Shown: positions 7,786 through 60,774 of the stretch, piece after piece | How the letters are laid out: every line of letters begins with the position of its first letter | Numbering within the stretch: position 1 is the stretch's first letter | Source of the DNA: an uncultured bacterium | GTDB lineage: Bacteria > Omnitrophota > Omnitrophia > Omnitrophales > Abzuiibacteriaceae | Reading direction: 5' to 3' | Assembly: GCA_964387845.1 (NCBI GenBank) | Contig: CAYLXA010000008.1 | Span: 32,001-96,000, forward strand | DNA length: 64,000 nt | Translations under genes and position numbers: made by a program | Notes under the pieces: generated by a model | What the model saw: the letters and a program-made list of their open reading frames with translations, nothing else | What the model was told of the DNA's origin: nothing | Databases searched by the model: none

Positions 7786-7846
7786 CATTGGGGTCAGTTC
7801 TTGAATTTTGAAGACCGTTCAATTTTCAAGAACCGACCCCAGTAAC
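7786..7846. repeat. hairpin repeat, family 1 copy 2; likely terminator
   Basis: cattggggtcagttcttgaattttgaagaccgttcaattttcaagaaccgaccccag lies 3' of the 6304 gene. The stem is 20+ bp. Confidence 0.6.
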
Positions 7847-10641: not shown

Positions 10642-11037
10642 ATGAATTGTCCTGCTTGTAAAGACCCGATGATTGCCATCGAACTTCAAAAAATAGAAGT
10701 CGACCATTGCGTTGCCTGCGGCGGCGTTTGGCTAGACTCGGGGGAACTCGAGCTTTTGCTGGGCGATTCCGAGAGCAAGAATCAATTATTCGAAACTTTT
10801 CGCTCAAGCGGTTTGCGTGAGAATACTAAAAAAAGTTGTCCGATTTGCTCCAAGAAAATGGAAGAAGTGCATTACAAAAAGGATGAAGACATTCTGCTTG
10901 ATTTGTGCCGCTTGAATCATGGCATCTGGTTCGATAAAGGAGAGCTTGAAAAAGTAATCCGGCTGAATGACCTTAACGGAAATTCAGAAGTGCTTAAGCT
11001 TTTGCAGGAAATATTTGCACATAGCGGTAAGCGATAA
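10642..11037 (+). CDS. zinc-ribbon (zf-TFIIB-like, two CxxC pairs x2) domain protein
   Basis: MNCPACKDPM..HCVACGGVW and a second CPICSKKM..LCRLNHGIWF unit. It is followed by the hairpin gcgttaagttattcaatcaacttaacgc. Confidence 0.6.
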   Translation: MNCPACKDPMIAIELQKIEVDHCVACGGVWLDSGELELLLGDSESKNQLFETFRSSGLRENTKKSCPICSKKMEEVHYKKDEDILLDLCRLNHGIWFDKGELEKVIRLNDLNGNSEVLKLLQEIFAHSGKR

Positions 11038-11110
11038 GCGTTAGGCGTTAAGTTATTCAATCAACTTAACGCTTACCCCTTAACACTTAACGCTGACAAA
11101 AGGAGGACTC

Positions 11111-11665
11111 ATGGAAGCTTTGTGGATTGTGCTCGGAGTTATCGTTGTGGTGGCCTTGTCCGTGATCGGAATTTTCAACGCGCTGATCGGAATGAAAAAT
11201 CAGGTGAAGAATGCCTGGTCGCAAATCGATGTGCAGCTCAAGCGCCGTTACGATTTGATTCCGAATTTGGTTGAGACCGCAAAAGGGTTTATGCAGCATG
11301 AGCGCCAAACGCTTGAAAATGTGACCAATGCCCGCGCACAGGCGATGGGCGCCGAAGGGGTTGCGGCAAAATCAAAGGCCGAAGGCGTTTTGAGCGGCGC
11401 AATCAGCAAGTTTCTGCTGACAGTCGAGAATTATCCGCAGCTGAAGGCGAACCAGAATTTTCTTTCGCTTCAGGAAGAATTGACATCAACGGAGAATAAA
11501 ATCGCATTTGCCCGGCAAAATTACAACGACCAAGTGCTCTTCTATAATAATAAAATCCAAATGTTCCCCTCCAATTTGGTCGCGGGGTTTTTTAATTTTA
11601 AAGCTGAGCAATCTTTTGAAATTGGCGATCAAGCTCAAAAGAGCGCTCCAGCAGTTAAGTTCTAA
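11111..11665 (+). CDS. lemA: LemA family protein
   Basis: N-terminal TM helix plus the conserved LemA body (QIDVQLKRRYDLIPNLVETAKG...ENYPQLKAN...R..YN). Confidence 0.85.
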   Translation: MEALWIVLGVIVVVALSVIGIFNALIGMKNQVKNAWSQIDVQLKRRYDLIPNLVETAKGFMQHERQTLENVTNARAQAMGAEGVAAKSKAEGVLSGAISKFLLTVENYPQLKANQNFLSLQEELTSTENKIAFARQNYNDQVLFYNNKIQMFPSNLVAGFFNFKAEQSFEIGDQAQKSAPAVKF

Positions 11666-11758
11666 GGGGTAAGTGGTAAGTGATAAGCGATGGGGTTAAT
11701 TTTCAAAAGTAGTTTTTATACTTACCACTTGGCCCTTACCACTTACAACTGAATAATC

Positions 11759-26732: not shown

Positions 26733-28246
26733 AGAAACTAGGAACCGTTTATTTAGTCGGTGCCGGCCCCGGAAATCCGAAATTGATTACGGTGCGTGGG
26801 CGCGAACTGCTTGAAGCTTGCGATATTGTGATTTACGATTCGCTGATTTCCGAATCGTTACTCAACTGCGCAAAAAATGCGGTCAAAATTTATGCCGGCA
26901 AAACCAGCAAAACACATAGAAAATTCAGCCAAGTTGAAATTGAAAAAATGTTGATTCATTATGCAAAACTCGGAAAATCGGTCGTCCGTTTAAAAGGCGG
27001 CGACCCCTTTATCTTTGGCCGCGGTGGTGACGAGGCGCTGGCTTTGCAAAACGCCAAAATTCCATATGAAATTGTGCCCGGCATTACAGCAGCGATTGGT
27101 GCATCCGCTTTTGCGGGAATTCCGATGACGCACCGGCAAATGGCTTCTGACGTCACATTTATCACTGCTCACGAAGATCCGCTGAAACCCGACGTTCAAG
27201 TGAATTGGAAAGCGATCGCGAGCCTCACCGGAACTCTCGTGATTTATATGGGCGTTTACAGGTTAGAAGATGTTGCAACTCGATTAATTCAACTTGGAAA
27301 AAATCCTGAAACGCCCACGGGAATTATCGAATGGGGAACCACTTCTAATCAAAAAACTGTGACAAGCACTTTGGATAAGATTGCAGAAACAGCAGAAATG
27401 GCGAACATAAAGTCGCCAGCAGTTATCGTGATCGGAGAAGTTGTTTCGCTTAGGAAGCAGCTTGCGTGGTTTGAGGAAAGGCCGCTTTTTGGAAAAACGG
27501 TTGTTGTCACGCGGCCTCGCCATCAAGCCGGGGCGCTCGCTGAACTTTTAGAAAGCCAAGGTGCGCGTGTGGTTGAAATTCCCACAGTTGAAATTCATCC
27601 CGTCAAAAATTTGAAAAAAGCGGACGAGTCCATCCGCCAGATTTCAAAATACAATTGGCTGGTGTTTACGAGTGAGAACGGCGTTGAATATTTTATGAAG
27701 CGGTTAAAGCAAATCGGTTTTGACGCGCGGAAGTTAAATAAAATTAAAATTGCAGTTGTCGGGCCGGGAACAGAAAAAAAAATAAATTCTTATTCATTGA
27801 AAGCAGATTTTGTTCCGGAAGTATTTTCAACCGAAGACCTTTTCCGGGATTTAAAGCGAAAAAAAATGGTTCGCGGGAACCATTTTTTGCTGGTCCGGAC
27901 GACAATTGCCAATGACGAACTCAAGAAATCGATTCAAAAAGAGGGCGGTTTTGCAACAGAGCTTTCGATTTATGAAACACGCAAACCAAAGTTAGACCGC
28001 CGAAAGGTAAAATCGGCGGTCGAAAAGGTCGATTATGTGACGTTTACGAGCGCATCAACCGCAAATAATTTTTTCAGTCTTTTTTCACGCGCGGAATTGA
28101 AAAATATAAGAAGTAAATTCATATCCATCGGGCCGGTTACCTCGCAAGCCATTCGAAGCTTCAAAGTTCCCGTGTATAAACAAGCGAATCCTTACACAAT
28201 TCCCGGGCTTGTGGACGCAATCACGAACGGAAACGGAAAAAACTAA
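26729..28246 (+). CDS. bifunctional uroporphyrinogen-III C-methyltransferase (CobA/SUMT) / uroporphyrinogen-III synthase (HemD) fusion
   Basis: N-terminal VYLVGAGPGNPKLITVRG...GGDPFIFGRGGDE (SUMT); the C-terminal ~250 aa are HemD-like. Confidence 0.85.
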   Translation: MKKLGTVYLVGAGPGNPKLITVRGRELLEACDIVIYDSLISESLLNCAKNAVKIYAGKTSKTHRKFSQVEIEKMLIHYAKLGKSVVRLKGGDPFIFGRGGDEALALQNAKIPYEIVPGITAAIGASAFAGIPMTHRQMASDVTFITAHEDPLKPDVQVNWKAIASLTGTLVIYMGVYRLEDVATRLIQLGKNPETPTGIIEWGTTSNQKTVTSTLDKIAETAEMANIKSPAVIVIGEVVSLRKQLAWFEERPLFGKTVVVTRPRHQAGALAELLESQGARVVEIPTVEIHPVKNLKKADESIRQISKYNWLVFTSENGVEYFMKRLKQIGFDARKLNKIKIAVVGPGTEKKINSYSLKADFVPEVFSTEDLFRDLKRKKMVRGNHFLLVRTTIANDELKKSIQKEGGFATELSIYETRKPKLDRRKVKSAVEKVDYVTFTSASTANNFFSLFSRAELKNIRSKFISIGPVTSQAIRSFKVPVYKQANPYTIPGLVDAITNGNGKN

Positions 28247-29217
28247 TGGCATATCCCAAAACGCGGCTTAGAAGGCTCCGGCGCACGGAAAATCTGAGGC
28301 GCCTTGTCAAGGAAACACATCTTTCTCCGGATCAGTTGATCATGCCGTATTTTGTTTCGGAACTGATCCGAGGCAAAGAGCCGATTCAATCAATGCCGGG
28401 ACAATTCCGGTATTCAATATCCGCGCTTTTATCAGAGCTCGATGGTTTAAGCCGCACAGGGGTTCGAAATATCATCCTGTTCGGAATTCCGAAGAACAAA
28501 GATGAAAAAGCGCGCAGTGCTTATTCATCAAAGGGAATTATTCAACAAACCACGCGCCAAATCAAAAAGCGTTTTCCGGGGCTGAATGTGATCACGGATG
28601 TTTGCCTGTGCGAATACATGAGCCACGGCCATTGCGGCATCATTCAAAAAAACCATGTTCAAAATGATGCAACGCTTACGCTTCTTGCCAAAACTGCGCT
28701 TTCGCATGCCGAGGCCGGCGCCGACATTGTGGCGCCGAGCGACATGATGGACGGCCGGATTGCCGCGATCCGCAAAAATTTAGACCGAAGCGGTTTTGAG
28801 GAATTGCCGATAATGAGTTATGCCGCGAAATTTGCCTCAGCTTATTATGGGCCGTTCCGTGAGGCCGCGCATTCTGCTCCGTCATTTGGCGACCGGAAAA
28901 GTTATCAGATGAATCCGGCCAACCGGAAAGAGGCCTTGCGCGAAATCGAAACGGATATTGAAGAAGGCGCCGATATTGTCATGATCAAGCCGGCGCTGCC
29001 GTATTTGGACGTGATTCGGGATGCGAACGCGAAGTTTCAAATTCCGTTTGCGGCCTATCAAGTGAGCGGTGAGTATTCGATGATCAAAGCGGGTGCCAAA
29101 GCCGGGTTTATGGATGAGCGGCAGCTGGTTTTGGAAACATTGCTTTCAATTAAACGGGCGGGAGCCAATATCATTCTGACGTATTTTGCAAAAGACGCTG
29201 CGAAATGGCTGAAATGA
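28246..29217 (+). CDS. hemB: porphobilinogen synthase (delta-aminolevulinate dehydratase) HemB
   Basis: RLRR..R..RLV.ET.L...LI.P.FV N-terminus and the active-site Lys region (ADIVMIKPALPYLDV). Confidence 0.9.
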   Translation: MAYPKTRLRRLRRTENLRRLVKETHLSPDQLIMPYFVSELIRGKEPIQSMPGQFRYSISALLSELDGLSRTGVRNIILFGIPKNKDEKARSAYSSKGIIQQTTRQIKKRFPGLNVITDVCLCEYMSHGHCGIIQKNHVQNDATLTLLAKTALSHAEAGADIVAPSDMMDGRIAAIRKNLDRSGFEELPIMSYAAKFASAYYGPFREAAHSAPSFGDRKSYQMNPANRKEALREIETDIEEGADIVMIKPALPYLDVIRDANAKFQIPFAAYQVSGEYSMIKAGAKAGFMDERQLVLETLLSIKRAGANIILTYFAKDAAKWLK

Positions 29218-30233
29218 ATCAATCAGTTTCAAAACACTCCTCACCCCAACCCTCTCCCATGGGGAGAGGGCAGGGTGAGGGGTCGAGAAGATTTCATTTT
29301 TCAATTCTTGTTTTTTTCGGTACGTTCATCCTTTGCTTCGCGCTCTGGATGACTTATCTACAGCAAGTCGGCTCCTCCGAAAATCATTTCGGAAGTTACC
29401 TGATTCTGATCATGGGCCTTTTATTTTCGGCAGCCTGCGGACTTTTTGTTTGGTCGCTTGAGTCCCGGGAACAGTTTCTCAAGAATGAAGTTGAGAAGCG
29501 GACGGTTCAGCTTCAAAGCATTAATGAGGAACTCGCCGAAAAGAATAAAGAAATCGAAAGCTTTGCTTACGCCATCTCGCACGATTTAAAAGCACCGCTG
29601 GTTTCCATTCAAGGTTTTACGTCATTATTAAAATCCGAACTCGGAAAAACTGCCGAAGGGCCTGTCGGTGCTCAACTAGACCGTATTTCAGCAAACGTAA
29701 AACAGATGAGTGCGCTTATTCAGGATATCTTGGAATTTTCAAGAGTCGGCCGCATGGAAGAAGAGCAGGAAAGTGTCGATATGAATGAGCTTTTCAAGGA
29801 AATCACGGCTGCGCTGAGGCCTCAAATTGAAAGCAAAAAAATCATACTTGAAATTAAACCGCCTTTTTCAACGCTGTGGGGATCCCGGAAGCGCCTTCAA
29901 CAGGTATTTATGAATTTGATCGGAAATTCCGTTAAATATATAGGTACTACGCCCAGCCCCAAGGTTAAAGTATATGGCCGGGAATCCGGAAACGGGCTTT
30001 TTGAGATTTGCGTTGAAGACAACGGCATCGGGATCCCGAAAGAAGCTCAGGAAAAGGTATTTAAAATTTTTCAGCGTTTTCATCCTAAATTGGGCGTCGA
30101 AGGGACCGGAATCGGTTTGAGCACCGTCAAGAAAATCGTAGAGACGAGCGGCGGGCGGATTTCGTTTACGTCGGAACCCGGCAAAGGAACGTCTTTTTTT
30201 ATCGCCTGGCCGAAAACGGATTTAAAAAAATGA
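29205..30233 (+). CDS. sensor histidine kinase (2 TM, HisKA + HATPase_c)
   Basis: H-box FAYAISHDLKAPL, N/G1/G2 boxes (DNGIGIP, GTGIGLS). The N-terminal cytoplasmic tail contains an in-frame palindromic insert. Confidence 0.8.
   Translation: MAEMNQSVSKHSSPQPSPMGRGQGEGSRRFHFSILVFFGTFILCFALWMTYLQQVGSSENHFGSYLILIMGLLFSAACGLFVWSLESREQFLKNEVEKRTVQLQSINEELAEKNKEIESFAYAISHDLKAPLVSIQGFTSLLKSELGKTAEGPVGAQLDRISANVKQMSALIQDILEFSRVGRMEEEQESVDMNELFKEITAALRPQIESKKIILEIKPPFSTLWGSRKRLQQVFMNLIGNSVKYIGTTPSPKVKVYGRESGNGLFEICVEDNGIGIPKEAQEKVFKIFQRFHPKLGVEGTGIGLSTVKKIVETSGGRISFTSEPGKGTSFFIAWPKTDLKK
29238..29283. repeat. REP/RPE-like palindrome inside the histidine-kinase N-terminus, in frame
   Basis: cctcaccccaaccctctcccatggggagagggcagggtgagg, a perfect nested palindrome encoding SPQPSPMGRGQGEG. 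Confidence 0.65.
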
Positions 30234-30643
30234 AACAGATTTTCATGGTCGAAGATAATCCCGATCATGCGTTTTTGATTCAAACCGCAATCGGGGAAGA
30301 TGACTGCAAAATTACGCATTTTCCGGAAGGGCTGTCGCTATTTGAATTTTTTGAATCAAACCAAAGCCCCGAAGCGCTCCCGGAGCTGGTTTTGCTGGAC
30401 CTGAATCTTCCGCAGCTGGATGGTTTTCAGATTTTGAGCAAAATGCGGGCAAATGCGAGGTTAAAACTCATTCCGGTCGTCATGCTTACGACTTCGAAAA
30501 GGCCGGAAGAAATTAAGCGTGCTTATGAGTTGGGTGCACATGGGTTTGTATCGAAGTCAGAAGATTTCGGAAACCTAAAGAATCAGTTGGCATGTGTTAA
30601 AAATTATTGGCTGAAAACAGTGGAGAAACCGAGCGTCACATGA
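30230..30643 (+). CDS. single-domain response regulator (receiver only)
   Basis: D..D..D54-like (LLDLNLP), T and K residues; 137 aa. Confidence 0.8.
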   Translation: MKQIFMVEDNPDHAFLIQTAIGEDDCKITHFPEGLSLFEFFESNQSPEALPELVLLDLNLPQLDGFQILSKMRANARLKLIPVVMLTTSKRPEEIKRAYELGAHGFVSKSEDFGNLKNQLACVKNYWLKTVEKPSVT

Positions 30644-31854
30644 TGAAGCGGGCGTCATTCCGGATTTTAGTTGTTGAAGATAACCCTGACCACGCGCAGC
30701 TTGTCAAATCCACGATCGAAATGGCAAAAAAGGGCGCTTACGAAGTCCAGGTTGCGGCGAGCGTTGAAGAAGCGGTTGAAATTCTGGGGCGCGATAGTTT
30801 CAGTTTAATCATGTCCGATTTTAATTTGCCGGGTAAAAGCGGGCTTCATTTGCTTGAATGGCTGAACGAAAAAGGCAGCACGGCGCCTTTTATCATGTTG
30901 ACCGGTTCCGGGGATGAAAAAATTGCAGTCAAAGCGATGCAGGAAGGTGCATACAATTATGTGGTGAAAGACGAATCCTACCTGCAGGTTGTGCCGCATG
31001 TGATTGATGAGGCGCTCCTTAAGTATTTAGCCAACCAGGAAAAAGAGCATCTCGAAAAGGAAATCCGTGAGAAAAATATTGCGCTCGACCAGGCCAACCG
31101 CAAACTCAGGAAGCTTGATGAATTAAAATCCAATTTTACGGCGTCGGTGAGCCACGAAATCAGGACGCCGCTTAATTCGGTCCGCGAAAGTTTGACGCTT
31201 CTTTTAGACGGCGTTGCCGATCCCAAAACGGAACGCGGGCAGCGCGTGCTTGAAATTGCGCGGCGCAATATTGACCGTTTGACGTCTATGATTAATGATT
31301 TGCTTGATTTTTCAAAAATCGAGGCCGGAAAATTGCAGGTCCATTTGGCGGACTGCAATTTAGAAACACTGCTTGACGAAGTTGTGACGGGTTTTCAAGG
31401 GCTCGCCCAATCCAAAAAAATCAAGCTGGTTTTTCAACCAAAAGAGAAAACACAGAACGTTTATGCCGATGCCGAGCGCGTGATTCAAATCATCACAAAT
31501 TTAGTCAATAATGCGGTTAAATTTACGGCGCCGGGCGGCACCATTACGGCTGACTATCGTTTGACCGAAAATGACATGGCGCAGGTTACCGTCACGGATT
31601 CGGGGCTCGGAATTCCGAAAGAGGATTTGGAACGTATTTTTGAACGTTTTGAACAATCTGAGCATTCAAACCAAAATATTCCGAAAGGTACGCGCGGAAC
31701 GGGCATCGGGCTTTCGATTTGCAGCGAGCTTATCAAGATGCATCATGGTAGGATTTGGGCGGATAGTGAACTCGGCAAAGGAAGCAAGTTTCATTTTACG
31801 CTTCCGTTAACGCAGGCGGTATTTGAAAAAGCAGAAGGCGTCAAGCAGTCTTAA
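30640..31854 (+). CDS. hybrid response regulator-histidine kinase (REC + coiled coil + HisKA + HATPase_c)
   Basis: Receiver (ILVVEDNPDH..SDFNLPG), H-box SVSHEIRTPLN, G-boxes (DSGLGIP, GTGIGLS). ATG 30640 overlaps the upstream stop. Confidence 0.8.
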   Translation: MMKRASFRILVVEDNPDHAQLVKSTIEMAKKGAYEVQVAASVEEAVEILGRDSFSLIMSDFNLPGKSGLHLLEWLNEKGSTAPFIMLTGSGDEKIAVKAMQEGAYNYVVKDESYLQVVPHVIDEALLKYLANQEKEHLEKEIREKNIALDQANRKLRKLDELKSNFTASVSHEIRTPLNSVRESLTLLLDGVADPKTERGQRVLEIARRNIDRLTSMINDLLDFSKIEAGKLQVHLADCNLETLLDEVVTGFQGLAQSKKIKLVFQPKEKTQNVYADAERVIQIITNLVNNAVKFTAPGGTITADYRLTENDMAQVTVTDSGLGIPKEDLERIFERFEQSEHSNQNIPKGTRGTGIGLSICSELIKMHHGRIWADSELGKGSKFHFTLPLTQAVFEKAEGVKQS

Positions 31855-31868
31855 CGAGGAGAGGCGAG

Positions 31869-32270
31869 ATGAAGCGAAAATTGCTGTTGGTGGATGACGA
31901 CAGGGAGTTTGCGGAACTATTCCGGAAGCGCGCTGAAGGGTCCGATTGGCAGATGGTTTGGCTGAACGACGGTACGGACGCGGTCAAGATTGCCAAAGCC
32001 GAAAAGCCGGACGTCATTATTCTGGACGTTTTTTTGCCGGAAATGGACGGCTTTACGACTTTGAAGAGCCTTAAAATGAAAGTGGACCCAGAAACCAAAA
32101 CACCTTCAGCAGTTTGCGATATTCCGGTCGTGGTCATGACCGGCAAAGCGCCGATGATGGAAGATATGGTCCGGTTTGAAGGAGCAGTCGATTTTTTTAC
32201 GAAGCCGGTCGACGGCGCTTCGCTTCTCAAGCGCATCAACGAGATTGTGGAGAAGAAACAAAAAGCATAA
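31869..32270 (+). CDS. single-domain response regulator
   Basis: LLLVDDD...IILDVFLPEMDGF receiver motifs. Confidence 0.8.
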   Translation: MKRKLLLVDDDREFAELFRKRAEGSDWQMVWLNDGTDAVKIAKAEKPDVIILDVFLPEMDGFTTLKSLKMKVDPETKTPSAVCDIPVVVMTGKAPMMEDMVRFEGAVDFFTKPVDGASLLKRINEIVEKKQKA

Positions 32271-35715: not shown

Positions 35716-38700
35716 GTGCGCAAAAAGCCATTTTTCATCAAAGCAATTGCCCTAGCGCTTTGCTTTACTTTTATCGCTACCGATACCATCGCTTATTCCG
35801 ACGCAGCTCAGACATCTCCGCAACTGGCGGAGATGCTGAAGCAGTCCTCGAACTGGTTGAGTTTGAGGGCCGCTACCATTTCGGGACTTTTCCGCAACGC
35901 CGCACCTTCTGTTTCCGGTACGCGTTTACCTGCCGCAGCTCCCAAGTTCGCCCGTTACTTGTCAGAACTTCGAAATGAAGCCAATGAAAAACCGGTTACG
36001 GCTGACTACATATCCGCTCAAACAATTCAGAATCAAAAAACCAATGAAATTACGCCTCCGCCTCAATCTGAATTACGCCAAGAGAAGCCCAGATTTAAAT
36101 CGCGGCACAGCTTTTTTAACCATGCCATACAGTTAAGCCGCAACTTATTCAAGCTTTCAGAGTGGAAACACCGGATTTTGAGATTGTCCAGCAGCTTCGG
36201 AAACCTTCCAGATGACATTCTGTTTCTAGTTACAACTCTTCCCATATTGATCGGAATATTGATAGTGGATGCTCTTGATAATTTTCATGATAACCCCAAA
36301 ACAAACGCAAGAATATGGTTCTGGGTTGTTACGAGTTCAGCGGTGTGGCTCTTCTCAGTGTTAACTGCCAATGTTGTTTTATTCAGATTTCAGAAACCTG
36401 CAAAAAGAAAATTGCCGGCAAAATCTGATCAGAAAGTTCAACGATCTGAATTGCGCGGCCATTCGGGCGTAGGGAGTTATGTCATTGGCGATTTGGAATT
36501 TAATAAAGGTGATCCAACCGGCTTTGAATTGATTAAACGGTTGATCGGAGAAGTAAGAGCAGGTCTTTTAACCGGCGAACTTCAAAAAGCCGGCTTGGAT
36601 CAAGATTCTATTTCACATATATTCCGGCTTGCTTCTTCGCCTAGTAAAAGTGCGCGCGAGCCAATTGGTTTCAAATACAGTGAAGCGGCCGGTCAGTTTG
36701 AGCTGATTAAAAATGATTTGCGCACCTATCTTCATCAGCTTCAGAAAACACAAAATCATGATCACGAAATCAATGTTTATGCGCTTGGGTTAGGCAATCT
36801 TCCGGTTGAAGCAGAGGAAGTCATCAAGTTGTTTCTGAACGTCATGGAAGAGGAGCTTGGCGAAGCAGCCAAAAATTGGTCTTTTAATTTTATCGGAATT
36901 GATTTTCAAGACGAACCCATCAAAGTCGCGCGAAAATACTTTGCAGAAGATATGGCTTCTCTAAAAGAAAAAGGATTCCGGAAAGTCACTTTACAAGCTG
37001 TGAAGGCAAACGCACTGTCATCTTCAGAGCTGACGCGGGTATTTGAAGAAACGGGTGGCTCTAAGAAAGCAGACTATTTATTTCATCGGCATGTGATGTA
37101 TGTAAACCGTGCTTCAAGTTGGTTAAATCAGCTTCGAGGCCTCACTCCTATCACGATGTTACGGCCTGTGCTTGCTGACGCGTTGGAGTCGTACCTTCAA
37201 TCACAGAATTTGATCGGCGCATTTACAAAAACAGGTACACGTTATGTTATTGAACCTCTCGCCAGCTCAGACCCAAGCATACGGGAAGTTGTCATTCCGG
37301 GATCCAGCGTTTTGCCGCAGGAAAATGGCGCAGCCGGCAGCGGGATTTATATTGTGAATGACCCCGCCGTTTTTACAGCAACCGGCTTCATTCAATATCT
37401 CCAGGATCAGCTTGGAGAAAATTTCTCCATCTCCGGCCCTCTTCGGGTCGATCGGACTGGAGGCCGGGGAGAGCTGCGCCGGGCTTCGAATTTTCATTTT
37501 GTAAACACAGTACGCAGAGTGTTGCGGCGGGAAATCGCCCAAATAGAAAAAGACAAGTGGCAAAACTGGGCAGTTGGTTTTGAGCCTGTGCAAGATGTTG
37601 CAAGCCACCTTGTCCGCGGTGCAAAGGGCGAGCTATGGATTCATTTGCACTTAACCTACCACGGACATGATAAACGTGCTCGTTTCGCCGAAAATGGCGT
37701 CTATGACTTGGGATTGCTTTTCCGGATAACCGATCGAGAGAATCAATTAACTCTTGATGCCCCCATGATTGAACCGCAAATAGGCCGGTCTGACTATTTT
37801 GCTTTTACACGCGCCGAAACGGTGCTTTCTTCCGAGCAGGCGGCCCGGCTTGTGAAGGAGGGAACGGAATTTGTCAATTCGCACGCCGGTCCGATCCGCA
37901 GTGCAATGCGTCTTGCCAAGAAAAAACCGAGCTCAATTCATAATCTATTGGGCCGTGCAGTATCGCCCCGGCACGCACGAGGCCTTTACAACATGATGAC
38001 ATTAGGGCATGAGGAAAAGCGTGTGATTGACCGTACAAAAAGGCGCTCGGTTACTTATCGGTTTGTGGGCAGCCGGCGAAGCGAGCTGCGTCAAAAATCG
38101 GAATTAGATTCGGCCCGAGAGTTTGTGGCTCACGCTATCCAAACCGGCCAATTGAAATTAGATCTGTTTGATCGGGGAAGGGAGCCTGCAAAACAAATTC
38201 TTCAGGAAGTTTTAGCTGAAAATCAAAAGCGAAAAACGGATCATATTCAAGAAGTCGAAACCGCAAGGCACAAAATAGCAACTTTCGAATCAAGGTTCAA
38301 AAAAATCCGTGATGAAATTGATTTTGACCCGTTTAAACCTCTGGCGCCGACGGAGCAGGAAAAAATCATGGAATGGTGGGCTGATGACCTGTACATGATG
38401 GAATATGAAATCAGAAATTATTTAGCCGAAATTCAGTCGGGGCAGCATCCGTTTTCAGGAAACGAATTGGATCAAGTAGTGGATGCTTTAATAGCCGCTT
38501 ACCGGTGGAGTATGGATGTTGTTGCTTTTTTTGAAAAACAAAAAGCAGAACTATTATTCTTTCGAAATCAAGAGACCACCGACAGCGAAGAGTCGGCCGA
38601 TACCATGGCGGCACTTTCAGGCGCATTTTCAGTTTTAGCCGACATCAAATCTCCGCGCGGACAAATCCCGGAAAATGTTTTTTTTGCCATAGCTGCAACC

Positions 38701-41700
38701 AAGCGCCACAAAGCGAAAGAATTTTTACTTTCTGTTCTTCGTGAGATTGGTTTCGATAAAACAAAATCCGAAACCCAGAAAATCGTGAGAGGAAGGGCGC
38801 TTAATTATCTGTTTGCCCACTTTCACAGCTCGGAACTTGCAGCACTGGCCCGGCAGGCAATTGAAAATTTAGGCAGAGAGCAAAGATTTGATTACGATGG
38901 CTGGGCATTTGATAGCGCGTTCATGGAACTTTTGCCTTATCTCGGAGATGAGAATGTTAAAGCGTATATTTTTAATTACTTAAAAGATGATTTTCAATTC
39001 GGAAAAGCTCTCGAAGCTGGGAACTGTTTGGAATACTTGCTGTTCGATTTAGAAACCGCGGAGGTCCCGGGTTGGTTTAAGGAGCGCTTGCAGATTTATT
39101 CGGAAAAAAATGCAGCGGCTATGGATGATTTTGGAATTACGGAAAATCAGGAAGCCTATTTAAATCGAATTAAAAAATTAAATGATTTTCTAGCTCTAAA
39201 AGAAGCCGGAATCGGGCTGCCGTCTTATCAATTTTCAAAATACGTTTTTCGGCCTATTCATTCACAGGATGAAATAGACACACTGCGCAAAATGAGCGGT
39301 TCATTTCCCGGACGACGCCCTGGTTGGAGCCCATGGGATATGACCGATTTTGTATTGGAAGATAGCAAGACCCGTCAAATTGTCGGAGGCGGCATGATTT
39401 CGGAGCATGACTACGACACAGAAGCGCACCATATTCATCTTGTTGCTCTGAGTGACCAGCTGCAAGGCCGGGATAGGGCAGATGCGTTTGTGTTTATTCT
39501 CGCCGGCATGTTGCAATCCATGTCGCCAAAAATCAAAGGCCGGAAAGTTGTTTGGCGCACATGGGTAAAAGATATTCTGGAAAAGACACTCGCGCTTGAT
39601 TTGGCGGGCGTTGATTTAGAACCTCTCATCAATCAAAACCCTGATGATGCACGCTCGGAATTGCTCAGTAAGCCTGAATCGCAGAATCCTATCCTCGAAA
39701 TCAATCAAGATTGGCGAAACATTTTTGATGACAACGCAAAACCGCTGGTGGTGGATGTCGGGTTCGGAAACGGAGAAACACTGCTTTACCGAGCACAGCA
39801 CGAGCCGGACAAAAATTTCATCGGTATCGAACTTCCCGAAGAGCCGTATGCGGATATGCTGGCTGAAAGGATTCAAACAGTGGGAATCAAAAACCTAAAA
39901 GTCCTCAAAGTGGCTGATTTTGAGGCATTTCGCACTCAACTCAAATTCGGGAACCAAGCAATCGTTTCAGAGCTAACTTATTACGATCCGTTTCCGGATA
40001 GTCCTTATGTATTTAGAGAACATACCGCTGATTTACAGCAAATTTTAAAACCCGGCGCGCTCGTTAAAATCATGGTTTTTGAACACGAATTTTGGCAAGA
40101 ACTGTCCGGCATTTTTGAATCCAACGGATTTCAAACGCTAAATCCTGCCGACCATGTTTTTGAGGATAATCATGATACGCAGGATTCAAATGAGGCATTT
40201 AGCACTCAACTGAAACTTATTTTCCGATGGCCCGGTCTATCATCAAATCGTTCCGAATTGCGCCAAGACCTCAAAATTCAGACGATTCTAAACGATATTG
40301 CCCAAAGCAGATTGATTTCGGAGAATCAGCCGGAAACTCGGTCTTTTTTTAATAGAATTTCGGATCGGTTAAAACAAAAATCAGTTTCCCAAACTTTCTT
40401 TTTGACCGGATTGTTACTTTCATCTTATGTCTATATTTTATTCGAGCGCTGGCTTGCTGCCGAGCCGGTCGAATCGAATGCTCAAGAAATAGCTGCCGCC
40501 ATTTTACTATTGGGCATTATTTCTACGATTTTTACCACGATCGTTAAGAGAATGAATAAGTCTAGTACATCCTGGCGCTGGGATGTTATTAGCTTTTCGG
40601 AAAATCAAATCATAGAAGATGCATTGACTTTTCTGGACCCTCACAAACATCAATTAAATCCCAATGTGGATATTATTGTTGAGAAAAGAAGCCACAGGTT
40701 TAAGCGTATTGCCATCGGATTTTTCAAAGAAAGTTTAAAAAATCTTGGCGCCGGTGCAATGTTTTTATTGATAGGAGGCTTTTTAGCTTGGAAAATTGGA
40801 TACGGCCTTCTTGATTTGTACAAGCAAGACCTGCACGCTGCATTTAAAGTCCCTGTCTATGGCATATTCGGCGCGGGGCTGATTGTGTTTGGTTTTGTGG
40901 GCATGATGGGATTTACCGTGCTTTTTCTATCTCCGTTCATTGCTCTTATGCAGGCTTGGGATGGAGAGTTTTCAGATAAGGGAATCGAGGACCAAAGAAT
41001 TTTTGTCCAGCACCAAGAATCCGAAGATGTTTTTTACGAGACGCTAGTTGAAGAATTAAATCACCGTTTCAAACTCCGCCGAGAGCCGCTTCCGGAGTTT
41101 CCAAAAACACTGGATGGTTTGCGGCTCGCCATGATACTCAAACGCTACGGCCTCCCCGGCAGTGAAATTGCGAATCGTTCCGCCTCCGGCCTCCTCCGGG
41201 TCTTGCGCCCTGAAGGGTCAGAGACCGCAGACCGTAACGCTCTCCGAGCCAACGGCTCGATGGAGCCGAGGGCACGGGGGGAACTTCGGCAGTCGGAACC
41301 TCGGAAGATGAGCAGGGCTGAGCTCGCCTCTTTATTCAGGGCGCAGCTACGCGAGGCGAATTTCATTGCATCGATACCGGTGTTGATACAACACGTATGG
41401 AATGTAATCGCCAAATTAGCAAAGCCCCTCAACTTCCAGTTTCGCGAACTAGGCCTAACGCAAGAGCTCCTCCGTTTGCAGACAGGGTTTTGGATCACCC
41501 GATTTGGGCCTGAAGACCGGATGTGGTGGGGACTCCGCGACGGCATGAAGTTCGGAGATACCGTTAATTGGTGGGGGCCTAAACAAAAAAGACCGGAGCC
41601 CCTGGGTTTTCATACCGGGATTGATTTTGTGATGTATCAAAATTTTCAAAAGGCCTGGAAAACAATTCCGGAAGGAACCGAAGTGCAGGCACTCTACGGA

Positions 41701-44700
41701 GGCACGGTGGTTTCCGTATTTCAAGACGACATGCAGAGCACCCTTGTTGTCAATCAAGAGATTACCGATACAGACGGAGGAAATACGCTGGTCACCATTT
41801 ATGCGCACATAGAGCCGGAAACTAACGTTCAGCCGGGCGTAAAAATTGAGGCTGGCGATGTCCTGGGCCGAATCAGGCGGTCGCGCAATGAGCGTTCGAT
41901 TGTTTCGCCTCATCTTCACTTATCGATCGGATGGGCAAAGCCCGAATTTTTTGAACGTCTCAAAAGCGACGGCGTCGATTGGCCGTTTGTGGATGCTTTG
42001 GCAAAAGAAGGCCTTCTGACTTATGTCGATCCGCTTACATTTTTGGATAAAAATGAAGCCGATCATTTTTTTATGAATGCCCAGCACAACAAATTAAAGA
42101 AAATTCTGATTCTAAATACACAGCCAGGCGCTCAATTTTTTCTGACCCGGCAAGTGATTGAAAAACAATTTCCCGGTGTCACGACACTCGCTGTAAGAAG
42201 TTTTGAAGAAGCGCAGAAAATTTTAAATGACCCGTCCAGCGAAATTGATGCGGTAGTCCGTGTTGACGAATCGGCATCAATCAGTTTCCCTAGAAAATAT
42301 TTAAAACGCACGGCCGTTTTAGATTATCAAGAAAAAAACAAAAGAGAATTCTTACGCCAACTGCATGTCGTGAATGTGATCGGCCGCTTGTATCACGAAC
42401 CGATCAGCCGTCTCAACATTCGCTACCGGCTTCAGCGGCGCATCCGTCAGGCGGGAATCCGGACAGTGGGGCAATTGGTTGACCTTGCCAACCTGCCGAA
42501 GAAATTTCGAAAGTTTACAACGGGCCTTTCTAAAGTTCCGGAGGGCCTTGAGCGCCGTTTGCAAGGCTCTCGCTACAAGGATGAGATCATCCGCGCAATC
42601 GTCTCTGTCCAGCCCCAGGCCATTCTGACACGCTCCATTTTGCACAGGCGGTCGCTTGGATTTTTCCAAATGGCGTACCGACTCACATTTGGATTTGAAT
42701 ACCATCCCGAGACGCGCAATTTTGCGGAGCTGATTTTATTCTTAAATGGTTTATCCGGCAGTGTTTTCAAAGAGCTGGTCAAACAATTTGACGTCCATAT
42801 TCAAACCGATTTAATCGATATTTTGCAGCGTGTTGCTCGGATTGCGCCCGAAGCCATTTCTGTCAACGTTCTGGAGATGTTTATCGATGACGAAGAGACT
42901 CCCAAGCGCATGCGCGAAAATTTCAATACCCTGGCAGATTTAATTCACATGGCAAGGAATGATACCAAACGGTTTAAGGAGATTTTTGGATATCAAATTT
43001 CATGGCATGTTTTGCTCTTGCTTCTTGAAATTCTTTACGATGCGGTTCCGGGAGAAATCATGTGGCAGGAATGGCCTGACCTTGTCCACACCGTTCTGAA
43101 TCCGCACAATCTTCCACGCACATTCGGCAGCGGCGGGTTAAGCGGGCATATCAACGCTTACTCAGCGGCCATTCAAGCACATTGGCGCCGGTTGATGGCG
43201 GAGCATAAGGGATATGCAAAAAGAAAAGACCGCTCAGAACTTCGGCAGGCGGGAGATCGGCAAATTTTCCAGAGGGCATTTCAGGGAATTGCTTTCGGTG
43301 GATATGGAGCGGGGCTTATTGCTGCGACTTGGCAGATGCTTACCGTTTATCCGCAAATGTTGAGGCCGTCCTTATTTGTGATTCTGCTTACCTGGAATTT
43401 CTATCAGATCGTGAAACTAATTCTCAAGCAGCCGTTTGTCAGTCAGGAAAAGATAAACCAAGAAAAGTATATTAACCGCCAACTTATCATTACCCATTTG
43501 CCGCAGCTTGGACTCATCAAGGCGCACATGCTAGCACCGTGGCTTGAGGCTTTTATGCAAGCGCCGGAAGTTGGGGCCTTGTTTTTGACGGTCTCCGGTT
43601 TGCTGGTTTCAAAATTGGCCTTTGACAGCTATCTGCGCAATGACGGCAGAGCATCGGGAAGGTCCGAATTGCGCACCAATGACCCGGAAGAGCCGAATGC
43701 CAAAAATCCACGCACGTCTACTTACGAGACTATTATCTCTAACCGCCCGCAAATGAACCCAACTGAAAGTAATACTGAACAAGCAAGCCTGTTCATGGCA
43801 CCGCTTGAAAACGTAACACCGGATGCGGTCCGGTGGCTTGACCGAGTGTTTAATAGCCGGCTTCCGAAGGGCCAGTATGTTTTTGTCGGTGTTGTTGTCG
43901 ATCGCAAAAGCAAAGACATCCAGGCTTTTCAGGATGGCGTTTACATGATTGCAAAATTTCTGGAAGTCGGCGGCGCATTTGAAGAAATCGGATTGAACGA
44001 GATCAAAAATAAAAAACTTCGCCGCAGAATCACGGCCGTCGGCAAAGGATCGTCGGTGCGCGTGATCGAATTTGCGAGTGTCGGCGGGGGCGATGATTAT
44101 GAAATTCCGCTGCGCCGCCTTCAGGGTGTAGTGGAAGATTATTACAGCAATGAACCGATTGTCTGGATCCCGATATCACCGGAAGGAGAACTTTCAAGCA
44201 CATTGGGCTGGAAGCCCAAAAACCGGGCTTTTCATTTGACGTTAGTGCATCAGGCACCGGAGCAAGAGCCGGAGGCGCGCTCTGAGCTTCGCAATGATGG
44301 TGGAATTATTCTTGAAGCCGGACAGCAAATCAAAGCGGTTGAAGGTTATCAAATGCAGCTTCAAGAAAACGGTAGCGTTGCATTTTACCGTGAACGGTTA
44401 AGCAGCCCTGAGCCGGACCCTGTTGAGGTAGTCAAACCCACCATGGCCGGCATGCCTGTTTATGATGAAGCAGGCAATATCATGGGCTATGTTGGCATCA
44501 CACATGACTTTGAAGGCCAAGGGGAAGATAGAAAATTAATTGCAAGAACCGCATTTTATCCGGAGCCTGAATTTGATATTGAGAAAACGCATGTGCCGTC
44601 TACATGGCCTGCTTGGGAGCTGCTCAAGGCGGTTGGGCTTTTGATTCCAAAAGAGGACGCGCATATTCTAAAAATTGAAGACATCAGCCAAACATCTGAT

Positions 44701-47700
44701 TCAAAAATTCACCGGATTACGGTGCGCGTACCGGAAGAGCAGAGTTTTCCGCTTCGCGGTATTGAAATTCTAGCACGCGAATTAATTGAGAATCCATCCG
44801 CTGAACAGCAGTTTGATCTTGTTTACAATGAGAAAGGACATTTGTTGGCTGTATTTCCCGTTTTTGGAAATGAAAATAGGGCCGCTGCGGAGGATGGCTT
44901 ATTTCTTGATGTCAGTCCGTACTATTTTGAAGTTCCGAAGGACATTCGAGGAGAGTCGAAACTCCTGATAGATCAATTTTTGCGCGAGTGGAGACAAAAC
45001 CAACAGCATATCCAAGCCTATCAAAAAAAGCATTTCGGTTCTAATCGGATGAATTTCTGGCATTTTAGTTATAACAATGACGAAAATAATGATGAAGATA
45101 ATAAAGAGGAGCCTCTTTATCAGTTTTATCATTTACTTCATAGTCACGGCCATGATCTTAGTTATTTGGGGGAAGTTGAAGTTCAATCTTTGGAGCATAT
45201 TTTTTACTACGTTAGTAAAGATCCGGATAGGAAAATGTTATTGTTACCAATTTTCCCAACGGTCTTCCCGCCATCCGGCGATCCCCAGCACGACACGGAA
45301 TATCATAAGGCTATTTTGATCGATCCCAGATTTGATTTAAATGAGAATCAGCGGACTCTTGTGGTAGGTTCCGGAAGCGGATTTGACACATGGCTTGTTT
45401 CCCTCAAAACACGCAAGACCGTGAGTGTAATTGACATTAATCCACTGGCGGTAGCCAACACAAAAGCGCTTGCGAAAATTGCAGGCTTCAAAGTTTTAGC
45501 TAGAACGGCTGACAATATCGTCGATGAAAGCGGAAAGCCCACTTTTCCAGATGCCCGGTTTGATCGAATTATTTGGAATATGCCCGAGCATGTTGAAGGT
45601 GATGGGCCCAGCCACGGGCAATTAGCAACCCAAAGGACCAAGTGGTATTTAACAGATCATTGGGATGGCGACGTCGATGGTTTCAGCTTGACCCGGTTTG
45701 CTTCAGGGCTTTGCGACATTTTAAATCCTGACTCGCGCGTTTTAATTTGGAATTCGAATAACGAAGATTCAATTTTGAATGCCTTTGAAAACCGCGGCAT
45801 GGAAGTTGAACGTGCAGGCCTCAATTATCGGTACAGTTTGTATTTTATTCAACCATCTGCCGCTGCAGGCGAGCTTTTGGAACCGATTTCTAACTCTGCA
45901 GATCAACGAAGCGAACCTCAAAAACACATTGCCGTGCTTCAACGGTTCAAGCACAATCCGACCGGATTTATGGGGTGGCTCAAGAACGAAATCGCCGAAG
46001 TTTTGACAATCATTGACATGCCGAGCGGTCAGTTTATGAAACTGCCTGATGCGGAAAGAAGGAAGAAAAATCAACGTATTGAAAACGCAATTTCCATGCT
46101 TTACGGCGTAGAAGATTTTATTTCGGCTAAAGATGCGGCAAAAATTATCAAGAATATTGACGAGGCACGCCGCATGTTGGACGAGATTTACCAAATGTCC
46201 GAATGGCGTAAAAATGATTTTTCCGCTATCCGCGGAGGGAAGCAAGATTCCAAACTTCCGGCAAGCACCGAGCAAGCGTGGCACGCACGGGATATTTTTA
46301 ACGAATTTCTTCCGAAAAATGGGCTAGGAGAAGCGCTTCAGAAATACACGGGGGATAAAAAAGTATTGGATACCGCAGCGGAGAAATGGCTGCCTGTTTT
46401 TACGCGCGTTCCGAAACATTTATTCATGCCGAAATATTTGCGGCAGGATGCTTATTTGCATGATGCGCCGTACCGAATCGGTTATGGCCAGACAATCTCA
46501 CAACCGTCTCTGGTTGCATTTATTCTGGCGCTGCTTGATTTAGAGCCCTCGGATGAAGTTTTGGAAGTCGGCGCAGGCAGCGGATGGTTGGCCGCGCTGA
46601 TGTCGCAGCAAGCGGCGCATGTCTATGCGACAGAACTCATTCCGCAGCTTGCGGGCCGTGCGGAGCGGGTGATTGAGAATATGGGAATTCAAAATGTCAG
46701 CATTGTTGAAGCCGATGGTTCGGTTGGTTATCCACAGGCGGCTCCGTTCGATAAAATCGTCGTTTCAGCCGGCAGCCCCAATGTTCCGGAACTGCTTGTG
46801 AACCAGCTCCGCGAAGGAGGCTTGCTGATCATTCCGGTTTTGGATCCTGCAGCGTCAAAAAAGCAGAAGTCTTACAAGCTGACATTATTTGTGAAAGAAG
46901 GCGGTAAATTGACAGAAAAACTTGCCATCGATAGGGTTAATTTTGTTGATCTGCGCGGTGTGCACGGTTGGCAGCCGGCGCCAAAACGTTCCGAGCTTCG
47001 CCGAGCCGCACAGCCGAAAGATTCAAACAGTGAAAAATCAACGCCGAAGCCCGAGACCGAGTCAGACCGGCGCATCATCCGGGCAGTTAATTATTTTCTG
47101 AAAGAAAAGAGGCCATTCAATCAAGGCGATATCGCCAAAAAAGCAAGAGTCAGCTTGCAAACGGTTACAAACCGGAAGCACGCAAATCCGTCGATCGCTC
47201 GGTTTGTTGATTGGGCCCTGGAGAAAGCGCCTAAGGCTGAGCCTAAATCCGTTCAAGCTCTAATCCGGGCCGCAAAGCAGTTGAAAAAAGAAGGAAAATC
47301 GGGCGTGACCAATTCAGTTGTTGCGGACCTAGCCGGTTATCATCCACAAACCGTTACCAGCATAAGCAAGTTATATCCTAAGGTAAAACAAGCTGTGCAG
47401 GGGGCGCGTCAATCTCCGCACGCACAGATTTCTCCCACGATTCAGAAAGTTGTGGATGTTATTAAAGCGGCCGCGAAGAAAAAACAAGTGTTTCAAAACG
47501 AAGGCCAAATCGCGCAAGCAGCCGAAATCAGGCCTGAAACGTTGAGCCGGATTAAGAAGCGGCGGTCCTCCTATCGGGAACCATTTCTCCAACTGCTTCA
47601 ATACGCCGTAAGCGACCCGGACCGTGCGCTTGAGATCATTAAAAAACACTTCTCGATTCATTCCGAACAGCGGGTTTCTGTCCAAGCATCCGCTCAAGAC

Positions 47701-52760: not shown

Positions 52761-54755
52761 TTATTCGTAACGAAGTGCTTCGATAGGATCGAGTTTGGCA
52801 GCTTTTTGTGCGGGCCAAATGCCGAAAATGATGCCGACGGCGGAGGAGAATCCGACGGAGAGCAGAATTGAATTGAGGGAAACACGGACGGCCCATCCAA
52901 AAGCATGCGCTAAACCGTAAGCGACGGCAGAACCGATCAAAATGCCGGCAGCGCCTCCGATCAAGCTGACCACCATCGATTCAACCAAAAATTGCAAATA
53001 AATGTCCTTCCTCTTTGCGCCGATGGCCTTCCGGAGGCCGATCTCTTTTGTTCTTTCCGTAACGGATACGAGCATGATGTTCATGATACCGATTCCGCCG
53101 ACAAGAAGCGCAATTCCGGCGATAGAGCCCAGAAAAATCGTCATGGTTTGAGTGACTTTTGCGATGGATTCCTGAATCTCCGTCATGTCGCGGATTGTGA
53201 AGCTGTCTTTACGGGTTTCGGGGAGCCGGTGGCTTCTGATGAGCATGGGAATAATCGCATCCTTTACGTCCTGAATTTTTTCTTTTGCTTCAACTTCAAC
53301 TTCGATGGTGCGCAAATAATCGGTGCCGATGAGCCGTTTCATGGCGGTCATGATCGGAATGATGACCACATCGTCTTGATCGCGCCACTGGTTTCCGCCT
53401 TTTTCGGGAAGGACGCCGATGACGCGGAAGGCGATCCGGTTGATACGGATAATTTTGTTAATCGGATCTTCTTTATCAAAAAGTTTCTGGCGGACTGTTT
53501 TGCCGATCACAACTACTTTGGCTCTTGTCATATTTTCCCTGTCCGTAAAGAACCGTCCGAGAACAGGTTCTGCCGCGCGCATTGAAGCGTATTCGGGAGC
53601 AACGCCCTGGACTTCCGAATTCCAATTTTTGTTTTGATACACCAGCTGTACGCCGGCCTGGACCGTGGGGTTGACGCGTTTAACATTCGGAAGTTCACGA
53701 ACGGATTTCAGGTCGTCCAACGTGAGCCGCGCCGCAGCGCCTTCTGCCATGGCAACGCCGCGCAAAATCGCGTTGTTGGGCCTCACGACGATTAAATTAG
53801 AGCCCAATCTTTCGAGGTCAGCCGTCATGGAAGCTTTGGTGCCTTCACCGAGCGCGAGCATCGCAATCACGGATCCGACACCGATTAAAATTCCGAGCAT
53901 TGAAAGCACCGAACGGACTTTATTGGCAAGAATGGCGGTGATGGCTTGTTGAACAAAGATGCTGATTTCTTTGAGGATTGAAGAAGAAGGCTTCCCCTCA
54001 CCCTTACCCTCTCCCCTTAGGGGAGAGGGAAAAGAATTCGATCCCCCTCTCCCTCCGGGAGAGGGTGGGGTGAGGGAGGTTGAAGAGCCTGAGTCAGAAA
54101 CGATCTGCCCGTCTTTCATTCGGATTTGGCGCTTTGCATATTCCGCGACTTCTTCTTCATGCGTCACCAGAATAATCGTGAGCCCCTTTTCATTCAGATT
54201 TTTAAGCAGTTTCATAATTTCAGTTTGCGTGTGTGAATCCAAATTTCCTGTCGGTTCATCCGCCATGATGATTTTAGGATCGTTGATGAGTGCGCGAGCG
54301 ATGGCAACGCGCTGCTGTTCGCCGCCTGAGAGTTGGTTGGGTTTGTGCTGTGCGCGTTTCTCGAGATTGACTTCGCGTAAGCGTGTCAGAATTTTCTCTT
54401 CATTTTGGGAATCTGCATTCGGGCTATAAATCAGCGGCAGCGCCACATTTTTGGATGCGGTCGTGCGGGAAAGCAGGTTGAACATTTGAAAAATAAAGCC
54501 GATTTTTTGATTTCTCAAAACCGCAAGCGCATCATCCGAAAGCTCCGAAATTTGCTCGCCGTCCAAAATAAATTCGCCGGAGTCCGGAACATCCAAAAGG
54601 CCCAGGACGTGCATCAAAGTTGATTTTCCGGAGCCCGACGGGCCCATGATGGCAATAAATTCGCCGGGTTGAATGTCGAGTGAAACACCGCGGAGTGCGT
54701 GGACTGAGGTTTCGCCGGAAGAGTAGGTTTTTTGAATATTTTTGAGCTTGATCAT
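52761..54755 (-). CDS. macB: MacB-type ABC transporter, fused ATPase + FtsX permease
   Basis: Walker A GPSGSGKST, signature LSGGEQQRVAIARAL, Walker B IIMADEPTGNLD, and a C-terminal 4-TM FtsX domain. The ATPase-permease linker carries a 28-aa palindrome-encoded insert. Confidence 0.85.
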   Translation of the reverse strand: MIKLKNIQKTYSSGETSVHALRGVSLDIQPGEFIAIMGPSGSGKSTLMHVLGLLDVPDSGEFILDGEQISELSDDALAVLRNQKIGFIFQMFNLLSRTTASKNVALPLIYSPNADSQNEEKILTRLREVNLEKRAQHKPNQLSGGEQQRVAIARALINDPKIIMADEPTGNLDSHTQTEIMKLLKNLNEKGLTIILVTHEEEVAEYAKRQIRMKDGQIVSDSGSSTSLTPPSPGGRGGSNSFPSPLRGEGKGEGKPSSSILKEISIFVQQAITAILANKVRSVLSMLGILIGVGSVIAMLALGEGTKASMTADLERLGSNLIVVRPNNAILRGVAMAEGAAARLTLDDLKSVRELPNVKRVNPTVQAGVQLVYQNKNWNSEVQGVAPEYASMRAAEPVLGRFFTDRENMTRAKVVVIGKTVRQKLFDKEDPINKIIRINRIAFRVIGVLPEKGGNQWRDQDDVVIIPIMTAMKRLIGTDYLRTIEVEVEAKEKIQDVKDAIIPMLIRSHRLPETRKDSFTIRDMTEIQESIAKVTQTMTIFLGSIAGIALLVGGIGIMNIMLVSVTERTKEIGLRKAIGAKRKDIYLQFLVESMVVSLIGGAAGILIGSAVAYGLAHAFGWAVRVSLNSILLSVGFSSAVGIIFGIWPAQKAAKLDPIEALRYE
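53994..54078. repeat. tandem/nested REP/RPE-like palindromes inside macB linker, in frame
   Basis: cccctcacccttaccctctccccttaggggagaggg + aaaagaattcgatc + cccctctccctccgggagagggtggggtgaggg. It is the same family as 29238..29283 and encodes ...PPSPGGRGGSNSFPSPLRGEGKGEG... on the - strand. Confidence 0.65.
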
Positions 54756-59364: not shown

Positions 59365-59411
59365 TCATCATGCGTAAATCACAGCTCATAAAATCAAAGG
59401 GACCTGTCACC

Positions 59412-60743: not shown

Positions 60744-60774
60744 AGAAATAAAGCGGTTTCTGAGAATCAAATAC

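Follow-up and report, generated by a model that had tools for sequence, protein, structure and literature searches.

Two genes in the window, by which we mean the whole 64-kb stretch of DNA that was analysed, carry a short palindrome within their reading frames, and both palindromes are assembled from the same four blocks, here designated A (CCTCACCC), B (CCCTCTCCC), B' (GGGAGAGGG), and A' (GGGTGAGG) (Table 1). The copy in the histidine kinase gene, CCTCACCC-caa-CCCTCTCCC-atg-GGGAGAGGG-ca-GGGTGAGG, has all four blocks perfect and supplies residues 13-26 of the protein (SPQPSPMGRGQGEG), in frame and within the N-terminal tail. The start codon of the kinase overlaps the stop codon of hemB, which lies 22 nt ahead of the palindrome, and the kinase is the next gene in a haem-biosynthesis operon. 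This overlap is conserved in relatives with and without the element, and the N-terminus encoded upstream of the element, MAEMNQS, has the counterparts MAEINQS in P0122 and MAQVNQL in P0123; because both features are conserved, the copy must lie inside the coding sequence and not 5' of it. The region at about 29205-32000 is syntenic with the relative L123 (10001-13423), where a haem-biosynthesis operon with genes for GlutR, PBG deaminase, HEM4/methylase, and ALAD is followed directly by the histidine kinase, and downstream of that kinase L123 encodes a hybrid response-regulator-kinase and then three single response regulators.

The second copy, in the gene for a MacB-type transporter, is a double form, CCTCACCC-tta-CCCTCTCCC-cttag-GGGAGAGGG-[15 nt]-CCCTCTCCC-tcc-GGGAGAGGG-tg-GGGTGAGG, in which all six blocks are perfect, and the peptide PPSPGGRGGSNSFPSPLRGEGKGEG is read in frame within MacB residues about 229-253. 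The MacB protein is identical in two independent sources, a 108 kb NCBI contig and the Logan assembly of SRR15237813. The closest named homologues of both the kinase and MacB are proteins of Candidatus Omnitrophica/Omnitrophota metagenome-assembled genomes (MAGs). A sequence-only reading of this DNA had pointed out both loci, at 29238-29283 and 53994-54078, and had called the second a nested double copy; both are present as described, with boundaries at 29239-29280 and 53996-54075, the reading frame is kept at each, and the two peptides it quoted are correct.

Table 1. Positions in the window of the two palindromic elements, their parts, and the adjoining genes
Feature	Position	Strand	Remarks
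hemB (porphobilinogen synthase, ALAD)	28246..29217	+	upstream of kinase; ALAD Pfam match from syntenic L123 gene
Membrane histidine kinase (HisKA + HATPase_c), host gene	29205..30233	+	two-helix; insert before TM1
Single four-block palindrome A-B-B'-A'	29239..29280	.	42 nt = 14 codons; encodes SPQPSPMGRGQGEG
Kinase inner hairpin, CCCTCTCCC-atg-GGGAGAGGG	29250..29270	.	
MacB-type fused ABC ATPase-permease (ABC_tran, MacB_PCD, FtsX), host gene	52761..54755	-	
Double element A-B-B'-spacer-B-B'-A'	53996..54075	.	80 nt; minus strand encodes LTPPSPGGRGGSNSFPSPLRGEGKGEG in MacB linker
MacB inner hairpin 1, CCCTCTCCC-cttag-GGGAGAGGG	54007..54029	.	
36-nt unit (15-nt A/T-rich spacer + B + loop + B')	54030..54065	.	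absent from L122; placement ambiguous within direct repeats
MacB inner hairpin 2, CCCTCTCCC-tcc-GGGAGAGGG	54045..54065	.	

Within the window, CCCTCTCCC-N0-12-GGGAGAGGG occurs three times, compared with no occurrence in 100 shuffles, and a relaxed scan of all 64 kb allowing up to 4 mismatches returned no further or decayed copies beyond the two loci. Since the G+C content of the window is only ~46%, the elements stand out as local G/C spikes, and the G-rich arm contains four G-runs. RNA structure prediction, which the earlier reading had proposed as a check, gave folds of -38.8 kcal/mol for the kinase copy and -65 kcal/mol for the MacB copy, at z of about -5.3 to -5.6 and with none of 200 shuffles as stable; over both loci and both strands, z-scores range from -4.6 to -5.6. 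A terminator or promoter role was considered and rejected: there is no terminator-like site at the palindrome, and the sole promoter-like match (29072-29099, minus strand) lies more than 100 nt away. Membership in an Rfam family was likewise rejected, as scanning both loci at E up to 10 gave no match above threshold, and what fell below it were hairpins of similar appearance, such as miRNA precursors.

The element is palindromic, and thus either strand reads C-rich and then G-rich. Read directly from the sequence, two of the three frames on each strand are free of stops, while the third meets a TGA in GGGTGAGG, and the encoded peptide is always rich in Pro/Ser/Leu/Thr and then hydrophilic and rich in Gly/Arg/Glu. 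AlphaFold models built from orthologue alignments place kinase residues 1-27 in coil with pLDDT <50, ahead of TM1 at 32-54, and MacB residues 226-258 likewise in coil with pLDDT <50, between the ATPase domain, which ends near 222, and a helix at 257-277. The models thus assign both inserts to predicted disordered regions, namely a cytoplasmic N-terminal tail and the linker from the ATPase domain to the first membrane helix, in agreement with the exposed-linker placement claimed beforehand. In all 65 aligned kinase orthologues, the stretch ahead of the first membrane helix is a variable tail on the cytoplasmic side, roughly 10-30 residues long. The predicted functions of the kinase and MacB are unchanged by the inserts.

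Comparison with orthologues reveals several states of the element at these two sites. The kinase site is empty in P0123 (76% identity; L123-L125), which keeps the same hemB-kinase operon, and is occupied in P0122 (77% identity; L126) by a 78-nt double form, A-B-B'-15 nt-B-B'-A', where the window has a single one; no similar tail segment was found in the other 62 aligned kinase orthologues. At the MacB site, the copy in P0002 (L122, 90% identity) is single and decayed, and none of the 58 aligned MacB orthologues of about 53-57% identity has the motif. These comparisons show that the inserts were gained at both sites in a lineage-specific manner, as had been predicted from the sequence. In both genes, the difference between single and double forms is exactly 36 nt (12 codons), a unit consisting of B, a 3-nt loop, B', and a 15-nt spacer and flanked by direct CCCTCTCCC repeats. 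The fate of the element differs between the two genes, as it is sometimes kept intact and sometimes lost. The kinase element differs from that of L126 at 1 of 42 positions, located in the loop, whereas the coding flanks differ at 25 of 149 (~17%), an excess of conservation with a binomial P=0.004 and Fisher P=0.019; the MacB copy of L122, by comparison, differs at 9 of 44 positions versus 12 of 108 in its flanks. Such conservation of the kinase copy is not predicted for a purely neutral passenger; it suggests that the copy is under selection, has been subject to gene conversion by other copies, or was re-copied recently.

Repeats of this kind have been known for about 30 years as BoxC or TM elements, with no function or route of spread found, and have been described as strictly intergenic. 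Work on BoxC and PIT (potential intrastrand triplex) elements is reportedly due to Bachellier in the 1990s and to Hoyne and Maher in 2000 and 2002. The intrastrand triplex motif TM-ECO, which its authors equate with the older BoxC and PIT elements, was defined as CCCTCNCCC-N3-6-GGGNGAGGG-N3-GGGNGAGGG (Holder et al. 2015, PMC4666352), with 23 copies in E. coli K-12, all intergenic, 3610 copies over 262 proteobacterial genomes, and related G/C-rich motifs in cyanobacteria. The same study observed triplex formation by TM oligonucleotides of E. coli in vitro and no triplex signal or footprint in vivo, no promoter or terminator activity of the E. coli elements, and no link of TM-ECO to mobile elements, and it found local variability to be raised (PMC4666352). 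Both window loci conform, on the minus strand, to the pattern CCCTCNCCC-N3-6-GGGNGAGGG-N3-GGGNGAGG(G) with its last G trimmed, with 0 expected from shuffles; the MacB copy conforms to the published pattern in full, and in the kinase copy the final G is replaced by A. DNA similar to the kinase element was detected by BLAST in 4778 of 5426 complete E. coli genomes, at a median of 7 places; none of the best ten E. coli places listed lies under an annotated feature, and one of these ten, located between wcaJ and cpsG, is likewise a four-block palindrome.

By their sequence, both loci are therefore members of the known BoxC/PIT/TM family and do not constitute a new family. They share with BoxC/PIT/TM-ECO the same blocks and spacing, inverted doubles, local indels, and the lack of a known link to mobile elements, and the local instability reported for the family is seen here as empty, single, double, and decayed states at two sites with 36-nt indels. 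The intergenic location of the E. coli copies is not shared, as both window copies lie inside coding sequences; being intergenic is a trait described for E. coli, not a structural requirement of the family. The double forms also differ, with the CCTCACCC arms outermost here and, by our reading of the coordinates and strands in Table 1 of PMC4666352, innermost in the E. coli inverted pairs, and the host phylum, Omnitrophota, lies outside the survey in that study. We found no earlier report of in-frame copies of the BoxC/TM motif in the literature searched, where its in-frame coding context is not described.

The family is widely distributed, with two loci in the 64-kb window and at least 120 in each of three collections, confirming the expectation that further copies would exist beyond the window. 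The three-block form A-B-B' was found at at least 120 loci in viral contigs, with the fourth arm missing in 146 of the 149 copies among the matches listed. The four-block palindrome was found at at least 120 loci in species-representative genomes, and the hosts among the matches listed are Omnitrophota, Thermodesulfobacteriota ("Deltaproteobacteria"), Nitrospirota, Planctomycetota, Chloroflexota, Cyanobacteria, Elusimicrobia, Methylomirabilota, Armatimonadota, Alpha- and Gammaproteobacteria, and Enterobacter. The double form was found at at least 120 loci in metagenomes, with both outer arms in 49 of 132 copies and spacers of 12-18 nt that are not conserved. A conserved spacer in the double form was considered, as AAAAGAATTCGATCC in the window resembles TATAAAAATGAATTT in L126, yet it was rejected because the 132 metagenomic doubles show no conservation of this part.

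Most copies of the family lie outside long open reading frames (ORFs), and copies within ORFs are depleted yet far from excluded. Taking at least 60 stop-free codons on both sides of a copy as the definition of a position deep in an ORF, 28 of 124 four-block copies (23%) are so placed, compared with 63% of random 43-nt windows from the same loci; when split by G+C content, leaving out copies near contig ends, the values are 10 of 62 (16%) versus 57% of random positions below 55% G+C and 16 of 49 (33%) versus 75% at or above 55%. Such depletion is what purifying selection would predict. Several of the coding copies lie in recognizable proteins. In three of these, a metallophosphoesterase (L130, Omnitrophota), a cytidylate kinase (L131), and PilM (L233, Omnitrophota), the copy falls inside a single Pfam match; in PriA (L157) and a short-chain dehydrogenase (L136), with two copies each, and in a HypC-radical-SAM fusion (L187), Pfam matches lie to either side. 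The aldehyde-dehydrogenase match of a ProA-like protein (L199) stops about 9 residues before its copy, and a giant Omnitrophota protein (L167) has two copies by ORF analysis only. In the PriA helicase, from an Elusimicrobia MAG (L157, 1281-3443), one segment lies just before Walker A and the zinc-binding region contains a decayed double; here, as in the short-chain dehydrogenase (L136, 1-726), both element-derived segments are in frame. The frame in which the blocks are translated differs between the two window loci and among other hosts, which means that the DNA, and not the peptide, is conserved. At the protein level, a search with the 38-residue MacB linker against 1.84 billion representatives returned 7 weak matches, of which the four inspected were mostly repetitive and ORF-like; the query is too short and biased to inform. 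Three matches from the peptide search (P0241, P0244, and P0246) look like translations of similar hairpin arrays.

The label REP/RPE-like given by the sequence-only reading fits the behaviour of the element, in frame at tolerated positions, and fails as a designation, since the element is the already described BoxC/PIT/TM-ECO and not an unnamed one. Rickettsia palindromic elements (RPE; Ogata et al. 2000, 2002) are about 100-150 bp long and not known outside Rickettsia, and they occur both in frame in many unrelated protein genes and between genes, at tolerated surface or linker positions, present in some orthologues and absent from others. The window element likewise lies in frame in unrelated ORFs at tolerated, exposed positions, and the analogy extends to other phyla, where in-frame copies recur within genuine Pfam domains; what is shared is behaviour and not ancestry, and the sequence-only reading had itself made no claim of homology, as the window element is 42-80 nt long, G/C-rich, and present in many phyla, and is set apart from RPE-1 to RPE-10 by length and host. 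REP and REPIN sequences are mobilised by RAYT (IS200/IS605-like Y1) transposases and are extragenic by definition. The window family resembles them in consisting of short G/C-rich imperfect palindromes with single and inverted-doublet forms, no target-site duplication, and genome-specific subfamilies, and differs from them in that a sequence logo of 120 copies has no GTAG or CGTC head. Within ~4 kb of copies at 240 loci, no RAYT gene was seen. A precedent for small bacterial repeats inside genes is given by Delihas 2007 (PMC2759123), according to which the enterobacterial RU/ERIC small mobile sequences have open frames and occur inside genes; they are 103-168 bp long, MITE-like, and belong to an unrelated sequence family. 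Recurrent G-quadruplex/C-tract repeats of archaea, with G-runs beside a complementary C-tract and an equilibrium of hairpin, triplex, and G4 (PMC8044849), differ in being archaeal and intergenic and in having another sequence and polarity.

It is probable, in our view, that both loci are BoxC/PIT/TM-type palindromes that came into the kinase and MacB genes among the recent ancestors of this Omnitrophota lineage and have stayed there, in frame, as passengers. That the segments were never inserted as DNA, and reflect instead an ancestral low-complexity linker, a convergent Pro/Gly/Arg-rich peptide, or an assembly artefact, is scarcely credible and largely refuted: the linkers in orthologues of the kinase and MacB are indeed length-variable and compositionally biased, but the shared DNA blocks differ in the frame used, no more distant orthologue has the motif, the MacB protein is reproduced by an independent assembly, and related elements occupy the same sites in independent samples. 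With respect to how such DNA might spread, both spacers are identical in 33% of same-assembly pairs versus 2.7% of pairs between assemblies, and spacers and loop together in 11% versus 0.26%. The copies thus form genome-specific subfamilies, which indicates that they were copied or homogenised inside each genome and did not arise independently. Such subfamilies, together with palindromic ends, short length, and many copies, would also be expected of MITEs, the classical non-autonomous transposons, with a DDE transposase supplied from another locus, yet this explanation is very unlikely, as 116 of 120 copies have no direct repeat at their junctions and hence no target-site duplication, and a logo of the 120 copies has nothing conserved in the flanks beyond the CC/GG adjoining the arms (CC before CCTCACCC). 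An all-against-all BLAST of about 7000 ORFs within ~4 kb of 240 element-bearing loci yielded no linked mobilising gene and no recurring transposase, and the recurrent neighbours were generic only, namely response regulators, ABC ATPases, and glycosyltransferases. At 42 nt, the element is also, to our knowledge, below the length of known MITEs, and Holder et al. (2015) found no link to mobile elements (PMC4666352). The absence of target-site duplication fits a single-strand hairpin (REP/RAYT-like) route or gene conversion better than a cut-and-paste transposon.

A different interpretation is that the palindromes are functional cis-elements under selection, for example a stable mRNA hairpin past the hemB stop that sets relative hem/kinase expression, a site bound by a protein, or a structure adopted by the DNA, such as a cruciform, triplex, or G-quadruplex. 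The main evidence for this is the near-identity of the kinase copies in the window and L126 amid flanks that have diverged by 17%, and the perfection of every block at both loci, the very stable predicted hairpins, the four G-runs, and the triplexes formed by TM oligonucleotides in vitro (PMC4666352) are all consistent with it. We nevertheless judge it unlikely, given that P0123 keeps the same hemB-kinase operon without any element, that the MacB copy of L122 decays faster than its flanks, that family copies occur in unrelated genes and spacers with no common neighbours, that no terminator-like tail is seen, and that the E. coli elements have neither promoter or terminator activity nor an in vivo triplex footprint (PMC4666352). 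Under the passenger interpretation that we prefer, the element would be a hairpin repeat, selfish or neutral, that disordered linkers accommodate in frame in the manner of the Rickettsia RPEs, and no host function would be required. Its tolerance may stem from its design, as a palindrome with two open frames per strand that encodes a Pro/Ser/Leu/Thr and then Gly/Arg/Glu peptide. Spread would occur by copying within genomes, and the simplest explanation for the 36-nt changes would be replication slippage or hairpin-mediated deletion between the direct CCCTCTCCC repeats.

The presence of a 42-nt palindrome in frame inside real enzymes and transporters of many phyla takes selfish DNA in protein-coding genes well beyond Rickettsia, and the filled, empty, single, and double alleles at the two sites provide a natural series for studying how such elements move and decay. 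It also carries a warning for annotation, as segments of the PSP...GRG...GEG type in MAG proteins are repeat-derived. As a tentative and somewhat doubtful extension, BoxC/TM hairpins might constitute an active cross-phylum class that routinely colonises coding sequence in uncultivated lineages (Omnitrophota, Thermodesulfobacteriota, Nitrospirota, and others), is moved by a putative hairpin-recognising machinery, is kept intact by gene conversion, re-copying, or selection, as the higher conservation of the kinase copy relative to its coding flanks would suggest, and continually generates disordered inserts of 12-26 residues and 12-codon length polymorphisms in proteins that are otherwise conserved. 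If true, linker and loop evolution would have in the BoxC/TM repeats a source that is both general and defined by sequence.

Several other repeats and features were encountered in the course of the analysis. Composite repeats in metagenome loci (e.g., L280, L282, L301, L307, L317, and L342) have the same inner CCCTCTCCC/GGGAGAGGG hairpins, with outer arms GGCGCTTCGCGCCA / TGGCGCGAAGCGCC in place of CCTCACCC / GGGTGAGG. The occurrence of other outer arms on the same inner hairpin implies that the CCCTCTCCC/GGGAGAGGG hairpin is apparently a module common to several families. Tandem arrays of the hairpin unit with a period of 33-39 nt are present in L267 (7919-8038), L274 (3377-3470), L290 (970-1107), and L132 (3066-3250). 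The window also contains a second, unrelated type of hairpin repeat, in the form of two intergenic imperfect palindromes (11023-11094 and 11656-11746) that flank an ORF at 11111-11665 and are made of 7-nt periodic units (GGTAAGC / GATAAGC / GTTAGGC... and GTAAGTG / GTAAGTG / ATAAGCG...); a similar heptamer run adjoins an A-B-B' copy in a viral locus (L017). A small zinc-ribbon-like ORF with paired CxxC motifs (10643-11025; MNCPACKDP...HCVACGG...CPICSKKM...) ends a few bases into the first of these heptamer palindromes. Two further hairpins, one with perfect 23-nt arms (60767-60814) just after the ORF at 59361-60743 and one with 24-nt arms (7789-7841; 88% complementary) just after the ORF at 6304-7770, could be terminators or further repeats. 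Finally, a giant ORF of 5181 residues (35716-51261), with a 5133-residue syntenic counterpart in L123, contains no copy of the palindrome, whereas the giant Omnitrophota ORF in L167 has two.
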